DNA of 51,998 bases from Thermoplasmata archaeon (GCA_021817735.1 JAKAFX010000001.1:1-51998), one strand, 5' to 3'; positions 11,105 through 48,847 are shown, counted from the first letter of the stretch. Numbers and translations: made by a program. Notes: a model not told the origin generated them from the sequence alone.

Positions 11105-11359
11105 CTATTTTGGAGGACTGACTCTTATGAACGGGGGAAAACCCTTGAGGAGTATTACATCTCCTATGGCCTTTATGAGACGGTAAGGTATGGAAATTGG
11201 AGCGCCATTCTCTACCAGCTGGCTGTTCGTCTCATCGATATAGATGCCGTAAATCAGGCTGCGATCAAAATCTATTATGACATCTGAAACCTTGCCTATC
11301 TCGATCCCCTGATGGTTGTACACAGTCCTGCCGGCAATCTGCGATAATGTAGCTTCCAT
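11105..11359 (-). CDS. PRC-barrel domain protein
   Basis: 84 aa. The GRTVYNHQGIEIGKVSDVIIDFD...IPYRLIKAIGDVILL pattern is typical of PRC barrels. Confidence 0.7.
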   Translation of the reverse strand: MEATLSQIAGRTVYNHQGIEIGKVSDVIIDFDRSLIYGIYIDETNSQLVENGAPISIPYRLIKAIGDVILLKGFPPFIRVSPPK

Positions 11360-11443
11360 TCACTGACCTGTATTAAATGCCCCGGAAAAACTTAAATTTA
11401 TCCATCGCCACATGACAGAAGAGTTGACAATCGCTGTGTTTCA

Positions 11444-12010
11444 TCATTTCCTACAGGTTGAAACAAAGCTGGAGAATAGTTCGCGCCCATTCTGTGTATC
11501 ATTAACCTCAGGGTGGAACTGCACGCCGTAAATCGGTCTGTCTCTGTGGAAGAAGGCCTGCACTCGGCAGTTACTGGAGCTTCCAGCAAGTATCAGGGAA
11601 TCGGGGAGCTTCTTGACCTCGTCATTGTGATTTTCCCACGCAGTAAAAGTAGCGGGCAGCGAAGAGAAGATGCCATCATGCCTTGACATCTCTATGATGG
11701 TTCTGCCAAACTCTGGGGTAGACCCCGGTCCAACTTCGCCACCAAAATGGAGCGCTATGAACTGTGCACCCACGCATATGCCCAGGATTGGCACCGAAAG
11801 TTCCTCTATGTATCCGGAGATATTCCCCAACTTGTCTAGTTCCGATACGATGCTTGGAGCCCCACCGGAAAGAACGAGGCCATCCACGCCAGCCAGCTTC
11901 GACGGCTCTGTGGTGTTTGCAATGATTGTGGACTCAACCCCAAAGGACTTTAACTGGCGCCATTCCTTGTGGGTCCACTGACCACCGTTATCTACCACGT
12001 CAATGCGCAT
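11444..12010 (-). CDS. guaAA: GMP synthase (glutamine-hydrolysing) subunit A, class I amidotransferase
   Basis: 188 aa. MRIDVVDNGGQWTHKEWR, nucleophile elbow GICVGAQ, QFHPEV. Confidence 0.9.
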   Translation of the reverse strand: MRIDVVDNGGQWTHKEWRQLKSFGVESTIIANTTEPSKLAGVDGLVLSGGAPSIVSELDKLGNISGYIEELSVPILGICVGAQFIALHFGGEVGPGSTPEFGRTIIEMSRHDGIFSSLPATFTAWENHNDEVKKLPDSLILAGSSSNCRVQAFFHRDRPIYGVQFHPEVNDTQNGRELFSSFVSTCRK

Positions 12011-12013
12011 TGG

Positions 12014-12943
12014 CTATTCCAGACCCGGGATATCCAGTGCCTTGCTTATTTCTTTGTACCTATTCCGGATGGTGACTTCAGTAACACCAGATACTCTTGC
12101 CACCTCTTTCTGCGTCCTTGGCTTTCCCACCAGCACCGAAGCTATATAGATGGAAGCAGCTGCCACGCCTGTTGGGCCTTTTCCAGACGAAATGCCGCTT
12201 TCAATTGATTTTCTCACGATTTCTTCACTTATGACTATGGCCTGCTTGTCCAGATCAAGCTTGTTGCAAAACTGTGCTACATAAGAATAAGGTGTGGTCG
12301 GTTTTAGGTTGAGGCTCAGTTCCTTTGCCAGATGCCTGTACGCCTTTCCAATCTTCTTCTTGTTAACCTCAGACGCCTTGGAAATTTCATCAAGAGTCCT
12401 CGGGAGATTTACCATCCTGCAGGCTGCATAAAGCGATGCGCATACTATGCTCTCAATGCTCCTGCCCCTGATAAGGTTCTTTTCCACTGCTCTCCTGTAA
12501 ACCAGGGCAGCAGTTTCTTTTATATCTTTCGGGATGCCGAGTTTTCCGCCATTGTCATTGAGCATCTGCAGAGCAAGAGACAGGTTTCTTTCGGCTGCAT
12601 TGCTTACTCTTATTCTCTGGTGCCACTTTCTCACCCTGTAGATTTGAGCCCTGTTCTTATGCGGTATCCTCTTGCCATAATAATCCTTGTTTGACCAGGA
12701 AATCTCGGTTGCAAGGCCTTTGTCGTGACTCAGGAAAGTCATTGGTGATCCAGTTCTTGCTCTTCTTTCATCCTGCTCAGAATCGAAAGATCTCCATTCC
12801 GGGCCCTGGTCAATAAGCGAATCCTCCAAAACGATCCCACAATCATTGCAAATCAATTCCCCTCTCTCATAATCCCTGAACAGATGCTCAGAGCCACATT
12901 CTAGACACTTTTTTCCCTGTAAGTCACGTGCAACCGACGCCAT
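12014..12943 (-). CDS. tfb: transcription initiation factor IIB (TFB)
   Basis: N-terminal Zn ribbon CLECGS...CNDCG, B-finger/linker, two cyclin-fold repeats, C-terminal HTH (VSGVTEVTIRNRYKE). Confidence 0.96.
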   Translation of the reverse strand: MASVARDLQGKKCLECGSEHLFRDYERGELICNDCGIVLEDSLIDQGPEWRSFDSEQDERRARTGSPMTFLSHDKGLATEISWSNKDYYGKRIPHKNRAQIYRVRKWHQRIRVSNAAERNLSLALQMLNDNGGKLGIPKDIKETAALVYRRAVEKNLIRGRSIESIVCASLYAACRMVNLPRTLDEISKASEVNKKKIGKAYRHLAKELSLNLKPTTPYSYVAQFCNKLDLDKQAIVISEEIVRKSIESGISSGKGPTGVAAASIYIASVLVGKPRTQKEVARVSGVTEVTIRNRYKEISKALDIPGLE

Positions 12944-27932: not shown

Positions 27933-28544
27933 TCATTCAAACCTGACTGAAAACAACACACCTTCTACAGGGGCTCTTTCCCGGGTGTGATGCTTATAGA
28001 TCCGCGGTACATCCAGGGTAACCCTTACCATATGCTCGATTCTGCCAATTTTCTGGTAAAGTTTCTCCAGATAGTCAATCGACTTGAGATTATGAATTGC
28101 ATAGAGGTATTGTGCTGACTCTGCAGCCTTCATTATGAACTCTCTATCCAACCTGGAAGTTGAATCTCCCCATGGTGGATTCATCAGAACCGTGTCGAAC
28201 TTTTCCGTGATGGTGCCGATCTCTGCAAGCACAGCATCAACATTCATTCCTGCCGTGTTCGCCCTTGTCAGGTTAACCATGTCCGGATCGCTGTCATATG
28301 CAGTGACCCTGCTGGCTCCAAGCAGGATGGCACCTACTGCAAGAATTCCGTTTCCTGTTCCAAAATCCGCTACGCTCTTTCCGGAAATGTTGCCGTCTGT
28401 GAACGCCATATGGCACAACCTGGCTGCAATTCCCGGTGTCGTAGGGTACTGCCCCAATGAAAATTTGTAAGTCGAAGGAAATTTCAACTTCGACAATGTA
28501 ATTTCGATTTGCTTGAGCGATGGAGTTACAGTGTTCAAACTCAC
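27933..28544 (-). CDS. METTL5-like rRNA N6-adenine methyltransferase (GTG start overlapping the upstream stop, GTGA)
   Basis: LGQYPTTPGIAA, SAM motif VADFGTGNGIL, FDTVLMNPPWG, and a C-terminal DVPRIYKHH...VLFSVRF collinear with METTL5 as I recall it. The 5' extension of the ORF to 28664 overlaps another gene out of frame. Confidence 0.85.
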   Translation of the reverse strand: MSLNTVTPSLKQIEITLSKLKFPSTYKFSLGQYPTTPGIAARLCHMAFTDGNISGKSVADFGTGNGILAVGAILLGASRVTAYDSDPDMVNLTRANTAGMNVDAVLAEIGTITEKFDTVLMNPPWGDSTSRLDREFIMKAAESAQYLYAIHNLKSIDYLEKLYQKIGRIEHMVRVTLDVPRIYKHHTRERAPVEGVLFSVRFE

Positions 28545-28852
28545 TGACTGGAGCCCATCGAAATCATAACTATTTCGCTGGCCAGTTTGTGTGCCCTGGC
28601 AGGGTTCTCTCCCCTTTCCTGCAGGAGCTTCTCTATCCTCTTGACTGCCCTGTATCTCTTCCATGTACCTTGTTCGTGAGCAGCAAGAACCACGTAGGAG
28701 GCTATCTCCCTGTCAACATTTATTCCAAATCTTTCCTTCAGCTTGATCTGCCACACTGGTATCAGGATATCAGGTATGGAACCGAGACTGGCGGACCTTC
28801 TCTTCTCGTATATAATCCTGTCAATCTGGTCCCGCCTCCTGGAGCTTGCCAT
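28541..28852 (-). CDS. conserved-looking hypothetical protein, 103 aa, translationally coupled to the methyltransferase
   Basis: ATG start. Helical, basic, no Cys (MASSRRRDQIDRIIYEKRR...KRIEKLLQERGENPARAHKLASEIV). Its TGA stop shares 'GTGA' with the downstream start. Confidence 0.55.
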   Translation of the reverse strand: MASSRRRDQIDRIIYEKRRSASLGSIPDILIPVWQIKLKERFGINVDREIASYVVLAAHEQGTWKRYRAVKRIEKLLQERGENPARAHKLASEIVMISMGSSQ

Positions 28853-37884: not shown

Positions 37885-40641
37885 CTATTTTTCATTTTTT
37901 GATCCAGTCCTTCCAGGTAGGAATACTCCCGATCTCAGTCTCCAGTATTCCACTACAAGGATAAGCATCAGAGCCAACGCTGAAATTCCATCATAGTTGT
38001 ATGTTATGAAATCGAAAAATCCACTCATAAAAGGTGGATGCGCGTATCTGTAAGAAATATCTACTGTGGTGTTTCCGGAGACGCTAAGTATGTAGGTTGA
38101 TGTTGCAGGGATGTAGTCTCCAGTTGATTCGGGAGAAAATACATATACTCCCATCGGAAGTTGCAGAAGCATTACTGTAGTGTTTGCAGTATAGACCCTG
38201 TTTGAGATCATTGTAGACCAGCAGTTGTCTGGGGGGATTCCCGACTCTATGATCCGAACAGCATAAAGCATGGCTGAAAAACCCACTGGTACAACTACGC
38301 CGCTGCCTTCTACCCTGAATGCGGTAGAAAACAGATGAGTCTCATACCCTTTGATACATGGTACGCTGAAATTGTAGGTTCCATTTGGGAGAGTGAAGTT
38401 AATCACTGGCAACCCTGAAATCACGATGTCTCCCGACTCGTTTATTGCCCATGGCATACCTGCGGGGAGTCCGTTCTCACAAAAAGTCACAACGTATCCC
38501 GCGGGCGGATGAACATAATAATGAATTGAGGTGTTGCATAGGTTGACATATCCTTGGGGGAGCAGCAGGTTGCTGCATACTGACATGTTGGCTGATCTGC
38601 CAATGAATACTGAGACGTTTTTCTGATGGCTCTGGGAAAAGTCAATTATATTTACTGTCTCGATAACGGCGCCACTTGCCTGGTCTTGGATAACTAAGGA
38701 TATATTAATGGGTATAGGTGATTGAAGATCAAAAACCGAGTCGCAGAGGACCCCAGATGAGGTGTTGAAAGCTGAGTTGACCCTGATTGAGACGGGGTTG
38801 CTAACCTGCACGGGGAAGGTCATGCTGGTCCTGAATCCATGTGGCGTCTCCGTAGAGGTGGTGAAATTAAGGTAAACATTGGTATTTTGAGTGTACATAT
38901 AATGTTGTATATTGACATTTACTGTAAGATAGGCCGTGACCGTTGCAAGCTCCATTACAGTCTGGTTGAAATAGCCTGCCGCAGGAATTGAAATACTCGC
39001 CGCAATAGTATATTGGAAGGCGTAGTTCCGGTTAATCCTGAAAGTGATATTGCTATTGCTGTGTGCAGTTAGATGTGTAGTAAGGAAAGATACTTGTGGA
39101 AGGGCCATAGAAAAGAGGAATGTTACATTGCAGGTTAGGGCTCCCTGTGTTGGTACAGGAAGAGGAGAAATCAGCTCAGATTTCCCAGCGATCGTAGCGT
39201 TGTAGGTCCCAAGATATGTAGTCCCCTCAGTCTCAGTCAGTGCAGTATTCGGCAAAACAATTACAGCATGGCCGTCGTGGACAAAAGGCTGAATCCCGGG
39301 CACATGCCCAAATTTCCTGTTGATCAAGTTCAACCATCCTGAGGCGCTTGATCTCAAAGTCGTATTCACAGCGCAGGACTTTACGCTAACATTGAACCCA
39401 TTCAAGGGGACCATTTCAGAGAATGCAGAAATATTGACAGTCGACGCTAAGATCGCCTGGGATCCTCCAGAGACAACGACAGGAACGCAGCTAGAGTTTC
39501 CTATTGCGCTGTAAAAAGGCCCAGAAATGTATGCGATACTACCATTCGTGAGAAGGAGGAAATCTGCCAGCGGATTTCGTAAATACGATGGGAATGTCAT
39601 CCTGCCGTTGTTAATTCCAAGGCGAGAGCAGTAGGAGACCAAGCTGGAATTATTCACCTGGATTTCATTGAATTGCAATCCCTGCCGATCAACCCAGTCC
39701 TGTGAATTTATTCTTGCAGAGAGATTCCATATAGTTGAATTGGAACCAATTCCCAAACTCATATTGTAGTACAGGGTCAGGCTGGATAAAACGGAGGACA
39801 AGTTTTCATGCATGTAGCTGAGATTAACTGAGAAGGTCAGAATCGATTTCGCGTATATTGAACCGGTATCAGGCATCTCCTGTCTTGCAAGGCTAGTACC
39901 GTTTAGCCTCACATTTATGCAATTATCACCATAGGGATTGTTTCCGCTTACCTGTATGGTAAAGGCAAGGGAATCCACGATTAGTTTTCCCCCGTACGCA
40001 GTGCTGGAAATGAATTCGATATTCTGGGGGGATGAAATTGGGTTACCGGAGGAAATTATGCATCCCGCGCTGAATCTGGTTGTTTCATTGCTGCTCGCAA
40101 GTCCCGATATGAAGGATCGAAAGAGTGATATGTTGCTGGAATGAAACATGATGGCCTCATGAGGGAATGTGGCCCCGGATGCATTTGAGATTGTTGAATT
40201 CCACATACATACATTCGTTCTTGAAAAGTTAGCATATCCGTCGATAATCAGGGAACTGTTCTTCATAAAGATGGAGGCTTTAATTCCACCCTGACCCCCG
40301 CAACTCAAGAATTGTGAGCAGCTTCCAGTACTCATTACCAGGTTTGAGTTGCAGAGCATTAGTTCCCCTCGGTTCAACAGCATCGCATCCCGTTTCTCGA
40401 ATATAACGCTGGCCCTTTGAATCCTGAGGACAGAACCGCTCGTCACGGTCAGATTGTTGAAAAGGTAACAGTAGGATCTTGTGAAGTTGTTTCCTATGGT
40501 CGAGATCGAAGTGGGAAATGGCTTGTGCTCATACGGGCCGACTTGGGATGACACTGGCGATACCGTACTGTATTGCGGGGCCGTGAACCCTGCAGGAGCT
40601 GCAAGTAGAAGTACTGAGAGAAATAGGATTATCAGTCTCAC
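37885..40641 (-). CDS. large secreted, C-terminally anchored surface glycoprotein
   Basis: Signal peptide MRLIILFLSVLLLAAPAG. C-terminal TM ISALALMLILVV plus a basic tail. About 37 N-x-S/T sequons by my manual count. The N-terminal half is rich in short N/S/G turns, suggesting a beta-helix. Confidence 0.75.
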   Translation of the reverse strand: MRLIILFLSVLLLAAPAGFTAPQYSTVSPVSSQVGPYEHKPFPTSISTIGNNFTRSYCYLFNNLTVTSGSVLRIQRASVIFEKRDAMLLNRGELMLCNSNLVMSTGSCSQFLSCGGQGGIKASIFMKNSSLIIDGYANFSRTNVCMWNSTISNASGATFPHEAIMFHSSNISLFRSFISGLASSNETTRFSAGCIISSGNPISSPQNIEFISSTAYGGKLIVDSLAFTIQVSGNNPYGDNCINVRLNGTSLARQEMPDTGSIYAKSILTFSVNLSYMHENLSSVLSSLTLYYNMSLGIGSNSTIWNLSARINSQDWVDRQGLQFNEIQVNNSSLVSYCSRLGINNGRMTFPSYLRNPLADFLLLTNGSIAYISGPFYSAIGNSSCVPVVVSGGSQAILASTVNISAFSEMVPLNGFNVSVKSCAVNTTLRSSASGWLNLINRKFGHVPGIQPFVHDGHAVIVLPNTALTETEGTTYLGTYNATIAGKSELISPLPVPTQGALTCNVTFLFSMALPQVSFLTTHLTAHSNSNITFRINRNYAFQYTIAASISIPAAGYFNQTVMELATVTAYLTVNVNIQHYMYTQNTNVYLNFTTSTETPHGFRTSMTFPVQVSNPVSIRVNSAFNTSSGVLCDSVFDLQSPIPINISLVIQDQASGAVIETVNIIDFSQSHQKNVSVFIGRSANMSVCSNLLLPQGYVNLCNTSIHYYVHPPAGYVVTFCENGLPAGMPWAINESGDIVISGLPVINFTLPNGTYNFSVPCIKGYETHLFSTAFRVEGSGVVVPVGFSAMLYAVRIIESGIPPDNCWSTMISNRVYTANTTVMLLQLPMGVYVFSPESTGDYIPATSTYILSVSGNTTVDISYRYAHPPFMSGFFDFITYNYDGISALALMLILVVEYWRLRSGVFLPGRTGSKNEK
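38050..38496 (-). repeat. two C-terminal modules of the same type as in the 633-aa surface protein
   Basis: YVVTFCENGLPAGMPWAI...LPNGTYNFSV...FRVEG and YAVRIIESGIPPDNCWST...PMGVYVFSP...ILSVSGNTTVDISY. Confidence 0.55.
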
Positions 40642-40741
40642 TGAAAGTGATTATTACGATATAGAAATAGTGACGGAGTACATATTTAGCATAATTCCAA
40701 TTAGTGCACAAATTATACTTATACCGATTATGGTATTTCGC

Positions 40742-41782
40742 CTACATGAGTGACTTTATCTTTTCCTCCATCTGCCTCCAGGTCTTACTGTGTTCCTTCA
40801 GGTAGCGCATGTCTCCGCTGTTAATCCTCAGTTTGAGCGGTTCTGATTCTGAATTGAACCGCTCGTATTCACGGAAAACGAGGGATTCCAGAAATGAATC
40901 GGCTAGCCTGACATAACGATTTTCCCCATCACTTCTGTACTTCCGGAGGTACAATTGTGACAGAACAAATGCAGCCATGAGATGAACCTGCACCGCTATC
41001 CTCCTGGGAAATCTTTCCAACCGAATTCTTTCCAGCACATCACGAAGGGAGAAGTTGCAGGCAATCATTGAATCCCTGTATCGAAGAAGTGAGCTGTTGA
41101 TTCTCAGCGATCGGGTGCGTGATCGGTGTTTCTCGGTTGACGTTCCCGTTGAGTAGAGATATGACCGAGGAAAATCTCCTTGTTCCACAGGGATAAAGAC
41201 AATGCCAAATGTCCGGCTGATCCTGGCCAGGAAATCGGTATCCCAACATACCCTGAGCCCTTTCCATCCTCCCGTTTCCTCAAGAATCTTTCTAGGATAA
41301 ACAGAGATAGCCGAATATAGGACCTTTTTCTCCCTGCTCTTGATGAACCTGTCTATTACGTCTGCCCAGGAAGGAGAATAAATCTTCTCCGGTGAGAATG
41401 TAACTATATAGTTTCCAGTGCTCTCTGCGACGCACCTTTGAAGATCCAGGCCATAGATTCCAGATGACTCTATTACTGTAAGATCATCATATTTCCTTAC
41501 CAGATCATTAAGTTCCATTGCAACTCTCGGGTTGTCGAGATGAGATACAATCATTATTTCACGGGGAATTCCAATCTCGTCAGCTATATCATCCATGCAG
41601 ATTATGGACTTTTCAATGCCAGTAACGTTGTTGGGCACGATCCCTATGAAAGTAAGTTTCCGTTTCTTCTCCTCCTCTGGCGAAAAGAAGAAAGGCTCGC
41701 CCATAAACTGCACAGGGATTGTCAAATCCACATCAGTGATAACAAAGAAAACGTCTTTGATAAATCTTCTGACATTTCCCAA
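40742..41782 (-). CDS. hypothetical protein with a degenerate GT2-like N-terminal half
   Basis: The order FIGIVPNN...IMIVSHLDNP...STGNYIVTFSPEK...GGW...WDTDF mirrors a GT-A fold, but the DD and DxD acidic motifs are not conserved. The C-terminal ~130 aa are helical and Arg-rich. Confidence 0.4.
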   Translation of the reverse strand: MGNVRRFIKDVFFVITDVDLTIPVQFMGEPFFFSPEEEKKRKLTFIGIVPNNVTGIEKSIICMDDIADEIGIPREIMIVSHLDNPRVAMELNDLVRKYDDLTVIESSGIYGLDLQRCVAESTGNYIVTFSPEKIYSPSWADVIDRFIKSREKKVLYSAISVYPRKILEETGGWKGLRVCWDTDFLARISRTFGIVFIPVEQGDFPRSYLYSTGTSTEKHRSRTRSLRINSSLLRYRDSMIACNFSLRDVLERIRLERFPRRIAVQVHLMAAFVLSQLYLRKYRSDGENRYVRLADSFLESLVFREYERFNSESEPLKLRINSGDMRYLKEHSKTWRQMEEKIKSLM

Positions 41783-41903: not shown

Positions 41904-42248
41904 CTAATCGAATATTTTCTTGGGATCGAAATCGCGCTGTAATTCATGCCAGCCACAAAATTGCATGGCCTGCAATGCAGTAATCTGAAATAACCCGTTA
42001 TATTGCCATAATACGCCCGCATCCCGAGCGCATCTCAAGCAGTACTCCTCGTCCGGCGACATAACCGGGCATATGAATGTAGTTCTGCGTGCTTCAAACG
42101 AGAAATCTGTTTCAACCAATGCGGTGAAGTTACGTGTTATATTTGCGAGTAAGTTGTCAAACCAGTCATGCATATTGAATCGAGCAGTCCTGCCATGGTT
42201 GCGTCGATTCAGGTGGAAAATACTGGGTGCAGGCAAAATAGATGACAT
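41904..42248 (-). CDS. hypothetical protein (114 aa), possibly a gene remnant
   Basis: ORF only. No motif recognised. Borders a 0.4 kb gene-poor stretch. Confidence 0.3.
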   Translation of the reverse strand: MSSILPAPSIFHLNRRNHGRTARFNMHDWFDNLLANITRNFTALVETDFSFEARRTTFICPVMSPDEEYCLRCARDAGVLWQYNGLFQITALQAMQFCGWHELQRDFDPKKIFD

Positions 42249-42655
42249 TGATTCTAACCGTACATCACTAAGGGGTATTCGCTTTCGAGACGCTTATTAG
42301 ACTGCTGGAGTGAGGGATAGCTGCCTCCAAATCTATTTCTTGTTTTCCTTAGATCGGCGAGCATACTGCAATTCTTTGAGTAACTATCCCAGTGAAACGG
42401 ATCTGCTAGTTATTGCACCATGTAGTCCTTCAGCCTCAGATTGAAGTAGGAGATTAAAGACTGTTTGTTTCCTTTACTGTGGCCAACGAATAATGTTGCA
42501 GCATTACAAAGGAATGTGGAGGGTCAAGATCAATGTCAACATCGGTCACAAACTGTTCCAGCAGTATGGAAAGATAGGAGTATCGTCGCTCTCCCAGTAA
42601 GATCGTGACCTGAACTCATCCAAAAAAGCATTAATATTAACCGAGTCTCATTCAC

Positions 42656-43165
42656 ATGCTCATAATGGTCTTAGATCCTTCGACCATAAGCTACTTTGCT
42701 GTAGTTGTGGCACTTGGAATCATGCTGGGAATTCTTGTGTTTGTATCCTATGTCATCATACCATTCATCACGAGTTCTGCACAGAAGAAGATCAGAATAG
42801 ACTCTGGTCTACTGCTGGGAAGAGGGCTTGTTTTGGTGCGTACGTTTGGTATAGCTGCAATATTATTCTCAATCCTTTCGGTATTGCTCAGTTCTTGGGA
42901 TGTTTCTCCCAGTTTGTCTTCATTACTGACAAGTCTTTATCCAGTTTCATATGCACTGCTTGTATTCTATGTGATTCTGTTTGAAGGTGTGGTGTTCCCC
43001 AGTACCACGCGTTTTTCGCACGTTGCACAGTACCAGATCAATTCCGCTTACGAGAAATCTTATCCACACTTCATACTTGGAGAAAGAATGCTCAAAAGAA
43101 TTCACATAATCAGCATTACAGTCTCTGCTATCATGTTATTCGGAGTATTGGTTTATATCGTTTAA
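42656..43165 (+). CDS. small integral membrane protein (about 4 TM)
   Basis: Hydrophobic segments ISYFAVVVALGIMLGILVFVSYVII, LVLVRTFGIAAILFSILSVLL, LYPVSYALLVFYVILFEGVVF and IHIISITVSAIMLFGVLVYIV. Confidence 0.6.
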   Translation: MLIMVLDPSTISYFAVVVALGIMLGILVFVSYVIIPFITSSAQKKIRIDSGLLLGRGLVLVRTFGIAAILFSILSVLLSSWDVSPSLSSLLTSLYPVSYALLVFYVILFEGVVFPSTTRFSHVAQYQINSAYEKSYPHFILGERMLKRIHIISITVSAIMLFGVLVYIV

Positions 43166-43262
43166 GGCCTCTGAAAGAGGATTCTACTGCCATCTCCATC
43201 CCCCGGGTTAAAGGCTATCCACAAACTCGACAGTTAAGCCTGAAGGTGATTCTTATCAAAAG

Positions 43263-43270
43263 TCTATTTA
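43263..43270 (+). promoter_or_regulatory. TATA-like box upstream of the kinase gene
   Basis: TCTATTTA centred about 28 nt upstream of TTG 43295, consistent with a leaderless transcript starting at the TTG. Confidence 0.3.
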
Positions 43271-43294
43271 GCAGAGACCTCATCTCATTTTGCA

Positions 43295-44686
43295 TTGTCC
43301 AGAGGATCAAAGGACGCAAAATCAAGGAAGAGCACAATTGAGCCAGAGGAGATCGAGGTCTCATACAACGGGCAGCAGAAAGGGGGTTTAGGCACATTCA
43401 CCATTTCACTGCCGCCAATGGTGGGGCTAAAGAGAGTAGATATTGCAATGATTTCAAGCAGCGGGTTCGAGAAGCTGGCAAGGGTGACAATGCGAAGTGA
43501 TGGCAGGTATCATCTCGAAACGAGGCTAGACGGAGCCGGTGAATATTCAGCCTCAGTAGCCGTATACGGCTCGACAGGAGTCGTGATCAAACCTTTCTCG
43601 TTTAAGGTGGAATCTATCAGAACTCAGCCCGAAGAAAGGAAAAAGAGAGATTCAAAACCGTCGAAGCCAAGTAAACAGCCCAAGGTGCCGCGGCAAGCGA
43701 AAATATCAAGGACTCCAGGCAAGATCGCTGGTATTCCGGATCCTCCTAAGCCGCCCAAGGAGATAATGGAATCTCAGTCGAGGATCTGGCCGATCTCATC
43801 CAATTATTCCCAGGCGCTTCAAAACCTGAAATTCTCAATCTCTTCCCAATATCCTCATCTGCTCAATGCAAAACTTGAGCCGAATCCAAACGTCAGGATG
43901 AAGTCTTACGTCTATGGCTCAGGGAATTTCGGAACAGTGTTCAAAGCCTCGCTCGATGGCAAATACTGGGCTCTGAAGCTTTTCACCAGGGCTTCTCCGG
44001 ACATAGCTGAGCGTTATTTTTACATAAGCTGGTTTCTCTCTCAAGTTAAACACCCTTTCCTCGTGAATTTCAACTACTATCCTTCTGCAGTCAGAGTCAT
44101 GAACAAGCCCAGTGAATATTTCCCAATGCTTGCCCTGGAATGGGTTGAGGGCATCACCCTTAACCAGTTCATAAACCGGAACCTGGGAAACAGGGCAATG
44201 ATCGAGAAGGCTGCCAAGTCTTTTCTGGATGGAGTTATGAGCCTTCAAGGATCAGGAATAGCTCATGGAGATCTTTCGGGAGACAATATCATAGTCTCAC
44301 CCAGTGGTGACATCACGTTCATTGACTATGATGGGATGTTTGTTCCCCCCCTTAAGGGTAAGTCATCATCCGAAAAAGGGCATGAACACTTCCAGCACCC
44401 TAAGAGGGGAGATGAATTCAATCTTGCAATGGATAATTTTTCAACCCTGGTAATCTACCTGTCTCTTATTGCAGTTGCCGAGGACAGGAGAATCTGGAAC
44501 TACAATGACGGGGATTCGGACAGGCTCATTTTTCAAGCCTCGGACTTCTTGAATCCGGACAAATCAAGAGTTTTCTCCGACTTGTCAAAGCAGAGCAAGA
44601 AAATAAGGATAAACACTGAACTTCTGGCTGATTTCTGCAGGCATGACTCGCAGTGGAAGTCATTTTCATTGAGCCAGATCACGTAG
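43295..44686 (+). CDS. Ser/Thr protein kinase (Hanks-type) with an N-terminal beta-rich domain and a Lys/Pro-rich linker
   Basis: G-loop GSGNFGTVF, Lys in YWALKLF, catalytic loop IAHGDLSGDNIIV, FIDYDG at the DFG position. Linker KPSKPSKQPKVPRQAK...PDPPKPPKE. The start may be TTG 43295 or a later ATG. Confidence 0.85.
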   Translation: MSRGSKDAKSRKSTIEPEEIEVSYNGQQKGGLGTFTISLPPMVGLKRVDIAMISSSGFEKLARVTMRSDGRYHLETRLDGAGEYSASVAVYGSTGVVIKPFSFKVESIRTQPEERKKRDSKPSKPSKQPKVPRQAKISRTPGKIAGIPDPPKPPKEIMESQSRIWPISSNYSQALQNLKFSISSQYPHLLNAKLEPNPNVRMKSYVYGSGNFGTVFKASLDGKYWALKLFTRASPDIAERYFYISWFLSQVKHPFLVNFNYYPSAVRVMNKPSEYFPMLALEWVEGITLNQFINRNLGNRAMIEKAAKSFLDGVMSLQGSGIAHGDLSGDNIIVSPSGDITFIDYDGMFVPPLKGKSSSEKGHEHFQHPKRGDEFNLAMDNFSTLVIYLSLIAVAEDRRIWNYNDGDSDRLIFQASDFLNPDKSRVFSDLSKQSKKIRINTELLADFCRHDSQWKSFSLSQIT

Positions 44687-45398
44687 TCGTAATGTGGAGG
44701 AACGTTAGATCGTCATTCCGCATTTTTTTCATAGAAATTTCCCCTGAAAAAAGTTCCAGGGTGTTCCCATCGATAATATGATCCCATGATTCAGGGTAAT
44801 ACTCGATTATCCATTTTGAGACTGAATCTGTTGCAAGCACAAAATCAACCGACGCAGAGGTGAAACTCATCGACTTGAAGTCCGGTTTTCTCCACTTGAA
44901 TTCCTTGGAAAACGGGGAACCATAGCCGCTCCATATAAGTTTGGGGGATATGTTAAAATCTTCCGGCCGGGACAGCGGAAAAGAATCAAGGGCGCCGTTG
45001 TCATTCCTCAAAAAGCAACTATCGCCCACTGAAACCACACGGAATTCAATGGCATCTCCCGAATCCCTGCCCTCTAGAGCAGTGAAGGTGGAAAAGGAAC
45101 CGTTAATCGCCTTATTTTTCACAAACAACTTCAGTTGGTCCCACTTGATTTCTTCGTACCACCTATCCCTGGCTGTTCTCACGAGTTGCTCTATGAAGGC
45201 ACCGTCATCAAAGAGAGATAGGTTTGACTGCACATAGGATTCCACAAGGGCCCTGGCCCATACTCCAGAGAATATGGAATCACTGGCCCCATCCGCAACG
45301 GCAAACTTCATCCTGCCGGAGTCAAATAGTAGGTAATCTTCATTCTCCTCAGGCTTGTTGCCCAGCTTTGGCGCAGTGAATTCCCTTACTCTAATCAT
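44679..45398 (-). CDS. PP2C-family protein phosphatase (PP2C_2 type)
   Basis: NEDYLLF, FAVADGASDS, VSVGDSCF, VLATDS, RNDDLTFLHI. The ATG overlaps the vWA stop (ATGA). Confidence 0.8.
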   Translation of the reverse strand: MIRVREFTAPKLGNKPEENEDYLLFDSGRMKFAVADGASDSIFSGVWARALVESYVQSNLSLFDDGAFIEQLVRTARDRWYEEIKWDQLKLFVKNKAINGSFSTFTALEGRDSGDAIEFRVVSVGDSCFLRNDNGALDSFPLSRPEDFNISPKLIWSGYGSPFSKEFKWRKPDFKSMSFTSASVDFVLATDSVSKWIIEYYPESWDHIIDGNTLELFSGEISMKKMRNDDLTFLHITTT

Positions 45399-46219
45399 CT
45401 CATCAGCGAAGAGATTGCTCTGGTTCCTATATCCAGCAGTTTTATGAGATCCTCTAGCTGAGCGTTGAACACATAGCCCCTGGCGCCCTGCTCAATATCC
45501 TTGTACTCTTCCTTGGCTATGGCGACCATGGAATCTGGAAGTTCGCTTGACATTTCGAACATCTTGCGTGCATACTTATCCTCAGGAAGCTTAGACTCTG
45601 AGGAAGGGTATGAGACAGGAGTTACCCTTGACTCCGAGAGATGGCAGTTCCATACTTGCGCATTCCCGTCGTATGTTGCGAGCTCCTTTATGTCATTGAC
45701 TACTGCAGAGGGATCCCCATCAGTGGCCTCTCCGTCACTTATGTTGATTATCACAGGGGGATACGAATTCATGTGCGAGTTGATCCACGAACTTATCCAT
45801 TCCTTGGCCATGGTGAACCCCTTCACCATTGGAGTGTCGCTTGCAGCTACCGGGTCAAACCATACAGGAAAATCAAAATCAATCTCCTCCCCCTCTATGA
45901 TCTGTTTTCTCTTCTCGACTTTCAGTATTCTTGTCTCAAGTTCAGATATGGGTACAATCTGCGAATCCTTCAGCAGTGACGTGGCGGTGTCTCTGGCAAC
46001 TCCATATCCGATGATCCCAATCTCGAAATAATTCCTTACCCCTTCAGATTTTGTGCATCGGTTGAGAAGCTCGTTCAGCTGCTTGTTGATAGCATCGGAG
46101 GCCTCAATGGCCTTTGACTTGGAACCTCCACCGATCTTGTGACTCATCGACCTGGACTGATCTACCAGGAAAACAAACAGTCCCGGGTTGTTCCTGCTTA
46201 TCTCGGCTGAGTATGGCAT
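45395..46219 (-). CDS. von Willebrand factor A domain protein, TerY/YegL type
   Basis: MIDAS DxSxS in FVFLVDQSRSMS, IGIIGYG, WFDPVA...TPM, PPVIINISDGEATDG, CHLS. Confidence 0.82.
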   Translation of the reverse strand: MPYSAEISRNNPGLFVFLVDQSRSMSHKIGGGSKSKAIEASDAINKQLNELLNRCTKSEGVRNYFEIGIIGYGVARDTATSLLKDSQIVPISELETRILKVEKRKQIIEGEEIDFDFPVWFDPVAASDTPMVKGFTMAKEWISSWINSHMNSYPPVIINISDGEATDGDPSAVVNDIKELATYDGNAQVWNCHLSESRVTPVSYPSSESKLPEDKYARKMFEMSSELPDSMVAIAKEEYKDIEQGARGYVFNAQLEDLIKLLDIGTRAISSLMR

Positions 46220-46237: not shown

Positions 46238-46250
46238 GTATATAATATAC
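46238..46250 (-). promoter_or_regulatory. TATA-like box for the vWA-PP2C operon (leaderless spacing)
   Basis: GTATATTATATAC on the minus strand, centred about 25 nt upstream of ATG 46219. Confidence 0.4.
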
Positions 46251-46295
46251 TTTTAGTGGTTGACCCCAGCCAAACACGTGCAACGGCAGCAAATT

Positions 46296-46327: not shown

Positions 46328-47329
46328 TCATGAAATAAATGGAATTTTTTCTTTGCAAAACAGGCACTTCCCATTGATTATTCCAATGTATTCAGTTTCG
46401 AATCCCTCCCTCTTTACCAGAAGATTCCCACAGTAAGGGCAATAGGTGTTCTGGTATCTGTGACCCGGGACATTTCCAAGATAGACATACTTGAAACCCA
46501 GATCTGTTGCGTGCTGCCAGTGCTTTTCAAGTGTGGCCACAGGAGTGCTTGCGATTTCCATCATCCTGTAATCCGGGTGGAATCTGAGGAAGCTTATGGG
46601 TACCTGGTCCCCTGCAATTTCAAGGATTTTTCGAAGCATATGGTCAAGTTCGTCCATGTTGTCTCCGACCCCTGGGACAACCAGATCGGTGATCTCCACA
46701 TGAATTCCTGCCCTAATCATCCTGGAGATAGTATCATAAATCGGCTCTGCAGAAGGAACCGAGATATACTTCCTGTAGAAGTCAGTTGCACCATTCCCCT
46801 TGAAATCCACGGTTGCAAAGTCAAGGAACTCCCTGCAAAGTACAACGGCTTCTGGGGTTTCGTATCCGTTCGTCACAAATATGTTAAACAACCCCTTCTC
46901 CCTGGCCAGTACACCGATGTCGTGTGCGTATTCTATGAAAATTGTTGGTTCGTTATACGTGTAAGCTAACCCCTGGGCTCCAACTTGTAGAGCCAGGTCA
47001 ACTATCTCGTCGGGCCTGACAAAATCCTCTCCAACGGTTCTATTCTGGCTGATCTGCCAGTTCTGGCAATACTGGCACGCATAGTTGCAGCCCATGGTTC
47101 CAAGTGAAAGAACCTTGGAGCCGGGGTGGGCATGCATAACAGGCTTCTTCTCAATTGGATCAAGATGAACTGCAACGGGTTGCCCATAGTTCTCGAGCAT
47201 CAATCTGCCGTTCCTGTTTGCGCGTATTCCGCAGAAGCCACGCTGATCTAATGCAAGAACGCAATACCTGCGGCACGCTGTGCATCTCACATTGTCTCCT
47301 TCGACCTGAGTATACAGCACTGCCTGCAT
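46328..47329 (-). CDS. AmmeMemoRadiSam system radical SAM enzyme
   Basis: CNYACQYCQN (CxxxCxxC), an N-terminal Cys cluster CTACRRYC...CGIR, and a C-terminal CPYCG...CLFC ribbon. Adjacent to the Memo and AMMECR1 genes. The ORF opens at GTG 47338; ATG is at 47329. Confidence 0.88.
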   Translation of the reverse strand: MQAVLYTQVEGDNVRCTACRRYCVLALDQRGFCGIRANRNGRLMLENYGQPVAVHLDPIEKKPVMHAHPGSKVLSLGTMGCNYACQYCQNWQISQNRTVGEDFVRPDEIVDLALQVGAQGLAYTYNEPTIFIEYAHDIGVLAREKGLFNIFVTNGYETPEAVVLCREFLDFATVDFKGNGATDFYRKYISVPSAEPIYDTISRMIRAGIHVEITDLVVPGVGDNMDELDHMLRKILEIAGDQVPISFLRFHPDYRMMEIASTPVATLEKHWQHATDLGFKYVYLGNVPGHRYQNTYCPYCGNLLVKREGFETEYIGIINGKCLFCKEKIPFIS

Positions 47330-47401
47330 GGATATCACCTGCAGCTATAGTAGGAATATCCTCGGCATAAGTTTTTTCCAGTTTTACTGGTTGTGTGCGA
47401 C

Positions 47402-48241
47402 TCAACTGTAAGCTAGCATTGACAGGTATCCGACCGCACTGGAATAATCTCCACTTGTTTCTGCAGAGGTTGTATGGTGAACCAACCTGGTTTTTAGTCT
47501 TCGGGCCCTTGCCAGCATCATGAAAAGTGCAATCGAACCGTAGCCGCATGCACTGACGCCACGCAATAAGAGGGTTCTGTAGAAGCTGTCAATGTCTAGG
47601 CTTTGCACTGTCTTTATTAGTTCTGTATCTTTTTCCCTCACAACGGTATCGCTCTCATAGTGGTCGAGATCAGAACTTGATATCAGCACGTACGGTTCGT
47701 TTATTTCATTCAGCGCCCTGAAGAGCATCATCATCGACTCGAGGGTCTGGGTTCCAAGTGAAAGAGGAACGAATGTGAAGTTATCACCAAACATATACTG
47801 GAGAAACGGTATCTGAACCTCAATGGAATGCTCCGAGAGATGAGCCAACTCATATTCCACAACGTTGTCTGAGTTCTTGAGGATTCCCGCTGCAACCTCA
47901 CGATTTATCTTAGCACTTCCCAGCGGCGTTTCCCAAGTTCCAGAAGACTGGATTGACACCATGTTCGTGGTCCCGTAATGATCCGGTCCTGCGATAATGA
48001 ATGTCCTTGCGTTAGTGTTCCTGAGATATCGGAAGGCCATCATTGCTGTCCTGCCGGAGTAGATATATCCGGCATGAGGAACAATCATTGCAGCAGGGCT
48101 TATCTTGTGCTCCATCTCACCATCCGGGGTGAAGTCTAGCGATCTCAGCACAGCCATTAAGTCTTCCCTGTCTCCAGGGTAGAAGGTTCCTGAGGCACAA
48201 GGCTTGCGTATCCTCTCCTTTTGCATCATGATAAATGCCAT
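47402..48241 (-). CDS. Memo-like protein (AmmeMemoRadiSam system protein B)
   Basis: ASGTFYPG, VPHAGYIYSG, GPDH, LSEHSIEVQ, SSDLDHY. Confidence 0.88.
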   Translation of the reverse strand: MAFIMMQKERIRKPCASGTFYPGDREDLMAVLRSLDFTPDGEMEHKISPAAMIVPHAGYIYSGRTAMMAFRYLRNTNARTFIIAGPDHYGTTNMVSIQSSGTWETPLGSAKINREVAAGILKNSDNVVEYELAHLSEHSIEVQIPFLQYMFGDNFTFVPLSLGTQTLESMMMLFRALNEINEPYVLISSSDLDHYESDTVVREKDTELIKTVQSLDIDSFYRTLLLRGVSACGYGSIALFMMLARARRLKTRLVHHTTSAETSGDYSSAVGYLSMLAYS

Positions 48242-48265: not shown

Positions 48266-48847
48266 TTGAACCTTAATCCTTCTGCAGACGGAATATCAGA
48301 AAGGGAACTCATGTACATCGCCAGAAAGTCAATCGAGTGTTCTGTCGCAGGAAAAAGGTTCATGGTTCCAGAGGAAATCCGCAACCGGAATTCCAGACCA
48401 GCGGGAGTATTTACCACGGTAAAGAAAAACGGGCTTCTGCGTGGCTGTATAGGTTTCATCTATCCGACATACCCGGTTTGGGAAGCAGTTCAGAAATCTG
48501 CAATTCTTAGTGTAACCGAGGATCCAAGATTTCCCCCTGTCCAGTCAGGGGAGGTAGCAGAACTTGGTATAGAAATCACCGTGCTGGGCACCCTGGAACG
48601 GCTTGATCTGTTACAGGGTAGCGGACTAAAGGAAGTATCTATTGGTAAAGATGGCTTATACATTACTGATGGCATAAGATCCGGACTTCTCCTGCCTCAG
48701 GTCGCGACTGAGAACAACCTTGACGAGAGGGAGTTTATAATCGAGACCGCGTACAAGGCAGGCATAGATCCAGGCGATGTGTTTTCTGGAAATGCAGATA
48801 TCTACAGGTTTCCGGCAGTGATTATCGAAGATAATCCATTACCATAA
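48266..48847 (+). CDS. AMMECR1 domain protein (AmmeMemoRadiSam system protein A), TTG start
   Basis: ARKSIE, GVFTTVKKNGLLRGCIGFI, EDPRFPPV, GLLLPQVA. Confidence 0.88.
   Translation: MNLNPSADGISERELMYIARKSIECSVAGKRFMVPEEIRNRNSRPAGVFTTVKKNGLLRGCIGFIYPTYPVWEAVQKSAILSVTEDPRFPPVQSGEVAELGIEITVLGTLERLDLLQGSGLKEVSIGKDGLYITDGIRSGLLLPQVATENNLDEREFIIETAYKAGIDPGDVFSGNADIYRFPAVIIEDNPLP

Follow-up and report, generated by a model that had tools for sequence, protein, structure and literature searches.

The 51,998-nucleotide stretch of Thermoplasmata archaeon DNA analyzed here (GCA_021817735.1 JAKAFX010000001.1:1-51998; in its full length referred to as the window) encodes a TerY-type vWA protein, a PP2C-family phosphatase, and a Ser/Thr kinase, which are well supported as the Thermoplasmatales form of the TerY-P module, a self-contained kinase/PP2C/vWA switch whose active sites are predicted to be competent. 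In bacteria, TerY-P is catalogued as an anti-phage system (PMC11090510; PMC7699616; bioRxiv 10.1101/2022.08.12.503731), as had been stated in a preliminary description of the window made from the sequence alone; the Thermoplasmatales-like host envisaged there agrees with the origin of the DNA. By homology with bacterial TerY-P, the leading candidate for the role of the archaeal module is a non-suicidal antiviral or conflict response, to which we give even chances. New is the archaeal architecture of TerY-P, which constitutes a natural dissection of the switch and a candidate kinase-based defence in archaea, and not a new category of system.

The triad, the small gene preceding it, and the two junctions within it are arranged as follows (ORF, open reading frame; MIDAS, metal ion-dependent adhesion site; TM, transmembrane):

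45395-46219, minus strand: TerY-type vWA protein with complete MIDAS (274-aa ORF)
44679-45398, minus strand: PP2C-family phosphatase (239-aa ORF)
43295-44686, plus strand: TerY-P-family Ser/Thr kinase (463-aa ORF, TTG start)
42656-43165, plus strand: protein with four TM segments, 4-TM protein (169-aa ORF)
45395-45398, minus strand: ATGA shared by the TerY stop and PP2C start codons, a 4-nt overlap (from the coordinates)
44679-44686, both strands: convergent overlap of the kinase and PP2C stop regions, 8 nt (from coordinates and sequence)

The four ORFs were found exactly where the preliminary description had placed them, and so was the ATGA overlap, which suggests that translation of TerY and PP2C is coupled. 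Independent gene calls on public contigs with identical proteins (GCA_027380615.1, GCA_027347625.1, and ENA assemblies) comprised the same four genes.

That these genes form a TerY-P-type triad, as previously proposed, was borne out by dedicated PADLOC profile hidden Markov models (HMMs), each of which matched its respective protein. TerY aligned almost over its whole length (1.7e-82; residues 1-268 on model positions 1-273 of 277), as did PP2C (7.3e-24; model positions 8-237 of 242). The kinase matched the model STK_OB (1.1e-54), but residues 209-449 aligned to positions 42-281 alone, out of 562; nothing in the window kinase corresponds to the OB-fold half, which takes up positions 282-562. 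The generic Pfam models, which the preliminary description had recommended as a check, gave a mixed result: the kinase scored above the cut-off for Pkinase (39 bits, 7.7e-10) and the phosphatase marginally so for PP2C_2 (24.3 bits, cut-off 24), whereas TerY stayed below the cut-off for VWA_2 (17.5 versus 27 bits), that is, the generic vWA model formally fails. NCBIfam contained no specific model for TerY, PP2C, or the kinase. With respect to solved structures, TerY had no sequence match to any PDB chain at E ≤ 1, a PDB sequence search returned none close to PP2C, and the kinase profile matched generic eukaryote-type kinases alone (∼1e-6).

To place the triad among its relatives, a kinase alignment was used to scan one genome per species, which yielded 133 relatives, and the loci of the best 80 of these 133 were compared. 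Of the latter, ∼66 were from Thermoplasmata/Thermoplasmatota, among them Cuniculiplasma, Thermogymnomonas acidicola, Oxyplasma meridianum, Sysuiplasma, E-plasma, and many metagenome-assembled genomes (MAGs) from acid mines; the remaining 14 were bacterial (Verrucomicrobiota, Gemmataceae, Clostridia, and others). The residues expected at the active sites are conserved across this sample. In TerY, the MIDAS (D20-x-S22-x-S24, T129, and D162-G-x-x-T166-D167) was invariant in 66 sequences, so it is intact, as had been claimed. Also invariant were Y3, E6-I7-S8-R9, P12, and a C-terminal D-I-G-T-R motif; it is speculation that the E6-I-S8-R segment and the D-I-G-T-R motif might be regulatory or phospho-acceptor sites. 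The PP2C motifs recognized earlier hold up as well, as the acidic metal-binding residues E20/D21, D36-G37, G125-D126, and N228-D229-D230 were kept in at least 90% of 68 sequences. In the kinase, which is of the HGD (non-RD), DYD type, G210/G213, K228, H324-G325-D326, N331, and D344-x-D346-G347 were invariant in 30 archaeal kinases. The earlier statement that the kinase has "all catalytic signatures" thus applies to the catalytic residues but is slightly generous, because the Glu at the expected αC position (E239) is not invariant in archaeal kinases. The DYD motif is followed by a family motif, E360-x-G-H-x-x-F-Q-H-P-x-R371, which is invariant in the 30 archaeal kinases and common to the bacterial loci.

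Two observations on the phosphatase may be added. In the cultured isolate Thermoplasmatales archaeon AK (locus L060, 11001-11800), the PP2C gene is split over two reading frames: one encodes the N-terminal 160 aa, and the LATDS and NDDVT motifs are found in the other. Either the gene is a frameshift pseudogene or the sequence contains an error; in the former case, the isolate would be a natural phosphatase-null strain. In three other loci (L014, L016, and L017), a second PP2C paralogue of 238-243 aa, belonging to the same BLAST cluster, lies downstream of TerY, either adjoining the triad or a few genes off.

The arrangement of the triad was compared using tblastn with the window proteins and clustering of ORFs. 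In all 59 archaeal loci where the three ORFs were present, and in every archaeal locus with room, the kinase gene was on the plus strand and the genes for PP2C and TerY were on the minus strand; linkage was thus maintained over kinase identities of 36-78%. In 48 of the 59, the 3′ ends of the kinase and PP2C genes overlapped by 7-17 nt, and in 41 the junction between PP2C and TerY was tight (-4 nt in 20, 0 nt in 14, and -1 nt in 7). In the bacterial loci, TerY, PP2C, and kinase genes were all on the same strand, and likewise in a copy on a Calothrix plasmid. Because it was found in every archaeal locus with room, the convergent layout is a conserved, order-wide feature. The opposite orientation of the kinase gene noted in the preliminary description is therefore correct but the rule and not special to the window, and the co-occurrence suggested there as a check holds order-wide for the triad and in one subclade for the 4-TM protein (see below). 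In a neighbour-joining tree, the archaeal TerY proteins grouped in a single clade (61/61), separate from those of bacteria. A single locus, L026, at first looked like a kinase lacking its triad. This was rejected since a gene for TnpB (OrfB_IS605 and Cas12f1-like TNB; 11118-12149, minus strand) adjoins the kinase gene 14 nt past its stop codon, at the place expected for PP2C, and the contig ends there; the triad is interrupted here either by an IS200/IS605-type insertion or by a break in the assembly.

The archaeal and bacterial kinases differ in what is attached to the catalytic core. The window kinase can be divided into three parts, all on the plus strand:

43295-43612, plus strand: N-terminal Ig-like β-sandwich, aa 1-106, folded at ∼17-106 (AlphaFold2)
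43613-43774, plus strand: Lys/Pro-rich, probably disordered linker, aa 107-160 (pLDDT 55-65; of variable length and low complexity in homologues)
43775-44686, plus strand: kinase core, aa 161-463 (PADLOC STK_OB, Pfam Pkinase)

Measured from the conserved kinase core (in the window protein, from W165-P166 onward), archaeal kinases had N-terminal extensions of 129-284 aa and C-terminal ones of at most 4 aa (0 aa in the window kinase). In bacterial kinases, the N-terminal extension was ∼0 aa and the C-terminal one between 139 and 1189 aa, including HhH, Ada-type Zn, SH3, and second kinase domains. The archaeal N-terminal modules fell into three unrelated classes: a β-rich one (25 loci), to which the window kinase belongs, a second soluble one (20 loci), and a multi-TM one with 4-6 segments (18 loci). 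The β-rich domain and the Lys/Pro-rich linker that had been read from the window sequence were recovered by AlphaFold2 as a seven-strand β-sandwich (pLDDT >90 at residues ∼17-106) and a low-confidence linker extending to ∼160. A Foldseek search against the PDB, also proposed in the preliminary description, supported an Ig-like fold and went no further, as just generic Ig-like, filamin, FnIII, and CopC-like matches were obtained (best E 1.5e-4). An exhaustive phmmer search with the Ig-like domain returned the closest kinase and short, multi-stretch matches in very long proteins; the latter were treated as matches to repeats or to composition, so that the domain appears to have no relatives outside the kinase family. 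In the second soluble class (for example, proteins P0055, P0065, P0069, P0070, and P0072; loci L050-L072), the N-terminal region of ∼100 aa looks PH-, GRAM-, or bPH-like by eye and is present twice in P0070 (L067); a Pfam scan of P0055 gave no match.

The preliminary description had counted the 4-TM protein encoded upstream of the kinase gene as an extra part of the system. It turned out to be a genuine partner of the kinase, but one specific to a single Thermoplasmata subclade and not a general component. The protein had no match in Pfam, NCBIfam, or PADLOC, a Pfam scan of all members of its family (E ≤ 5) revealed no consistent family, and a homology search with the single sequence returned the query alone. 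4-TM ORFs of 161-194 aa immediately preceded the kinase gene, in the same orientation, in L007, L008, and L010-L017, and a local HMM built for the family found, in all fetched loci, exclusively homologues adjoining a kinase gene (E 1e-47 to 1e-60). A profile search of 5.8 billion proteins gave nine clusters, in which the named members were Thermoplasmata MAG proteins only. One of the proteins, P0126, was found in this way independently of the kinase, and is again encoded upstream of kinase, PP2C, and TerY (L087 and L088). Partnership is concluded from this exclusive adjacency, tested from both directions. Overall, the family occurred at 11 of the 25 β-sandwich-type loci found via the kinase, in addition to L087 and L088, which came up through the TM protein; it was absent, among the fetched loci, from those of the Cuniculiplasma and E-plasma types, although these have a β-sandwich kinase, and from both other classes of kinase. 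R62, Y105, E110, and H138 are invariant in the family alignment, and AlphaFold2 modeled four long helices with low confidence (pLDDT 57.6). The idea that the 4-TM protein is the split-off version of the TM domain fused to other archaeal kinases was rejected (hhalign probability 1.2%), and no homology was detected to other clusters of small TM proteins near the triad. In the KM4364-06 MAG, the 4-TM gene is at a contig end (L089, 5001-5489) and the kinase gene near the start of another contig (L009), where a gene for a 531-aa SEC-C-motif protein (230-1825) precedes it; this may reflect an insertion between the 4-TM and kinase genes.

How such a module might work can be sketched as follows. The TerY-P genes alone protect bacteria against T7-like phages, and the cells survive (PMC7699616; bioRxiv 10.1101/2022.08.12.503731), which is why no separate effector would be needed. 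The cue that activates the kinase would be sensed by the N-terminal module; in the window protein, the 4-TM partner would probably tether the Ig-like domain to the membrane, whose place would be taken in other clades by a fused multi-TM anchor or by the other soluble domain. The active kinase would phosphorylate TerY and/or other targets, the MIDAS of TerY would bind a phosphorylated or acidic ligand, and PP2C, made in a fixed ratio with TerY, would reset the switch. The input, nucleic acid in bacteria as suggested by the OB, Zn-ribbon, and HhH domains of their kinases, may thereby have become the membrane or envelope in these archaea, which have no cell wall. An antiviral role is favored by the homology and by the turnover of the N-terminal modules.

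Several findings weigh against that role or against parts of this sketch. The triad is monophyletic in Thermoplasmata. Its neighbours are housekeeping genes, and in the window PADLOC recognized no further defence gene other than a generic match to a methyltransferase. The scan for relatives turned up no copy on viral contigs, and the TerY relatives residing on plasmids were bacterial only. Such housekeeping context and absence from viruses and plasmids are atypical for mobile defence systems. The Ig-like domain has neither a signal peptide nor a conserved ligand site, S87 being its sole near-invariant residue. Which way the signal runs and what the kinase phosphorylates are inferred only, and membrane coupling as a common theme is an analogy, because no homology connects the 4-TM protein with the fused TM domains (see above). 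With the triad monophyletic, surrounded by housekeeping genes, and not found on viral contigs, calling it an accessory module, as in the preliminary description, is doubtful.

Taken further, the triad would be a native archaeal antiviral phospho-system that senses infection at the membrane of the wall-less cells through interchangeable N-terminal modules (an Ig-like domain docked on the 4-TM protein, a multi-TM anchor fused to the kinase, or the other soluble domain) and in which the obligatory 3′ overlap of the convergent transcripts sets the balance of kinase and phosphatase. In this full form the proposal is rather unlikely.

The strongest competing explanation, which we consider possible but on the whole doubtful, is that the triad is a domesticated housekeeping switch that became fixed in Thermoplasmatales, where it would serve membrane or surface homeostasis, the response to metal or acid stress, or DNA repair, and would resemble the control of the archaellum by Arn proteins. 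A role as regulator is favored by monophyly (archaeal TerY forming one clade, 61/61), by housekeeping context, and by absence from mobile elements. In the window, the triad is accompanied by an AmmeMemoRadiSam trio and genes for an ABC transporter, PadR, glycosyltransferases, ThyX, thermosome, succinyl-CoA ligase, and carbamoyltransferase, without any further PADLOC defence genes; in other subclades, the flanks consist of different core genes (PCNA, Nre, radical SAM, acetamidase, HpcH aldolase, and metallophosphoesterase), which are conserved per subclade. Viral contigs were devoid of copies, archaeal kinases lack the nucleic-acid-binding tail of defence-type kinases, and ArnA/ArnB set a precedent for an archaeal vWA phospho-switch. 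The original comparative-genomics proposal for TerY-P, as quoted in PMC11090510, was a metal-sensing phospho-switch, which would suit the acidic, metal-rich sites from which the carriers originate, judging by the names of the MAGs. On the other hand, the nearest characterized relatives are antiviral, and the swapping of N-terminal modules resembles the turnover of sensors in conflict systems. Thermoplasma, Picrophilus, Ferroplasma, and Acidiplasma are not named among the best 80 of the 133 relatives, which fits a dispensable module, and so does not favor a fixed regulator; the frameshifted PP2C gene of the isolate Thermoplasmatales archaeon AK points in the same direction. Furthermore, neither an FHA partner nor a regulated target operon is linked to the triad.

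A different function for the 4-TM protein, namely that of a kinase-gated, membrane-permeabilizing effector instead of an anchor or sensor, is improbable. Small TM proteins are often the effectors in bacterial defence, as in CBASS and retron systems, and the strict adjacency to the kinase gene (11 loci found via the kinase, and L087 and L088 via the TM protein) as well as the invariant charged or polar residues R62, E110, and H138, located in or near helices, would be compatible with such a function. However, the family is restricted to one subclade and to 11 of 25 β-sandwich-type loci, which means that the triad works without it elsewhere, and the survival of infected bacterial TerY-P carriers speaks against an effector that kills; whether a pore could form cannot be read from so poor a structural model. 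That unrelated signalling genes, or their decayed remnants, lie side by side by chance, for which nothing but the weak generic VWA_2 and PP2C_2 scores could be adduced, is refuted by the match of dedicated HMMs to all three proteins (1e-24 to 1e-82), by their linkage in 59 loci across kinase identities of 36-78%, and by conservation of the active sites.

The Thermoplasmatales clade has kept the three catalytic cores of TerY-P, while the accessory domain of the kinase moved from the C- to the N-terminus and was exchanged three times, and the kinase gene was inverted. These archaeal changes separate the invariant switch (kinase core, PP2C, and MIDAS protein) from its replaceable input. For genetics, the clade includes carriers in culture, namely Cuniculiplasma, Oxyplasma meridianum, and Thermogymnomonas acidicola. 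Should the module prove antiviral, the few defences listed for archaea would be joined by one based on a kinase; otherwise, a module of the defence type would have been fixed as a cellular regulator.

Upstream of the TerY start codon, a candidate promoter for TerY-PP2C was recognized by eye (BRE, B recognition element):

46239-46254, minus strand: A/T-rich BRE/TATA-like element AAAAGTATATTATATA, ∼20 nt upstream of the TerY ATG (by eye)

Similar elements, again by eye, precede the TM gene (42622-42640) and the kinase gene (43258-43270). Scans for sigma-70 promoters and intrinsic terminators gave counts at the level expected from shuffled sequence, and the underlying model is not applicable to archaea.

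Some neighbouring genes recur with the triad. The AmmeMemoRadiSam trio beside TerY comprises a radical SAM gene (46328-47338, minus strand), Memo (47402-48241, minus strand), and an AMMECR1-like gene (48266-48847, plus strand); its adjacency to TerY is kept in the nearest relatives (L007, L008, L009, L018, and L087) and not in other subclades. On the other side, the region 37885-41782 encodes a 918-aa protein, rich in N-glycosylation sequons and without a Pfam match, paired with a 346-aa orphan. The two are again encoded ahead of the TM and kinase genes in L007, L008, L087, and L089, and metagenome scans for the lineage-specific 346-aa protein (p346), with the single protein and with an alignment, found no loci. 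The pair is followed by an ORF of 114 aa (41904-42248, minus strand), for which no homologue was present in any fetched locus, and by a non-coding gap of 407 nt before the TM gene. Further away, a PrmA/MTS-type methyltransferase gene (27933-28664, minus strand) gave a partial PADLOC match to mad2 (8e-16), most likely through generic methyltransferase similarity.

In nine loci of the Cuniculiplasma type (among them L019-L021, L025, L033, L040, L043, and L046), a fusion of a UvrD-like helicase and a PD-(D/E)XK nuclease of ∼900 aa is encoded divergently from the kinase. It is the sole nucleic-acid enzyme recurring beside archaeal triads. Because bacterial TerY-P triads associate with DNA-processing genes, the fusion protein could be a functional partner, or the arrangement could be plain synteny.

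In the literature searched, no paper ties TerY-P to Thermoplasmata or describes the Thermoplasmatales architecture. Of the known systems, CoCoNuT-associated TerY-P shares the triad of TerY vWA, PP2C, and STK (Ser/Thr kinase), but there it is integrated with the CnuH/CnuE helicase-HEPN and McrBC-like genes (PMC11090510); none of these genes was found in the window or as conserved neighbours of the archaeal loci, and the zinc ribbon that CoCoNuT-type kinases carry at their C-terminus, as opposed to the OB fold of the stand-alone defence type (PMC11090510), is likewise missing. The archaellum regulators of Sulfolobus (ArnA/ArnB with ArnC/ArnD and PP2A) are alike in that an archaeal vWA protein is switched by Hanks-type kinases and the modification is reversed by a phosphatase (PMC6509490; PMC12852372; PMC7472852). 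They differ in that their phosphatase is PP2A and not PP2C, and in that the literature describes a network, whereas here the genes for kinase, phosphatase, and vWA protein are clustered. The structure of ArnB has been reported (PMC6509490), and its chain is presumably contained in the PDB, to which TerY had no match at E ≤ 1; by sequence, TerY does not appear to be of the ArnB family. An FHA/Zn-finger partner, as ArnB has, was not among the scanned neighbours of the triad.

The closest resemblance is to the stand-alone bacterial TerY-P (Gao et al, 2020), with which the archaeal loci share the three HMM families and contiguous genes with no further conserved partner; TerY of the closest bacterial loci is 40-45% identical, and the kinase core 30-37%. 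In contrast to the characterized defence type, archaeal kinases lack the C-terminal OB fold, the window kinase having an N-terminal Ig-like domain and a linker instead, and the kinase gene is convergent and not the last in a co-directional TerY-PP2C-STK operon. Also, the bacterial system is sporadic, whereas in Thermoplasmata it is chromosomal, clade-wide, and monophyletic. Measured against the general definition of the TerY-P triad, that is, a TerY vWA protein, a PP2C phosphatase, and an STK encoded by linked genes, the module described here possesses all three features.

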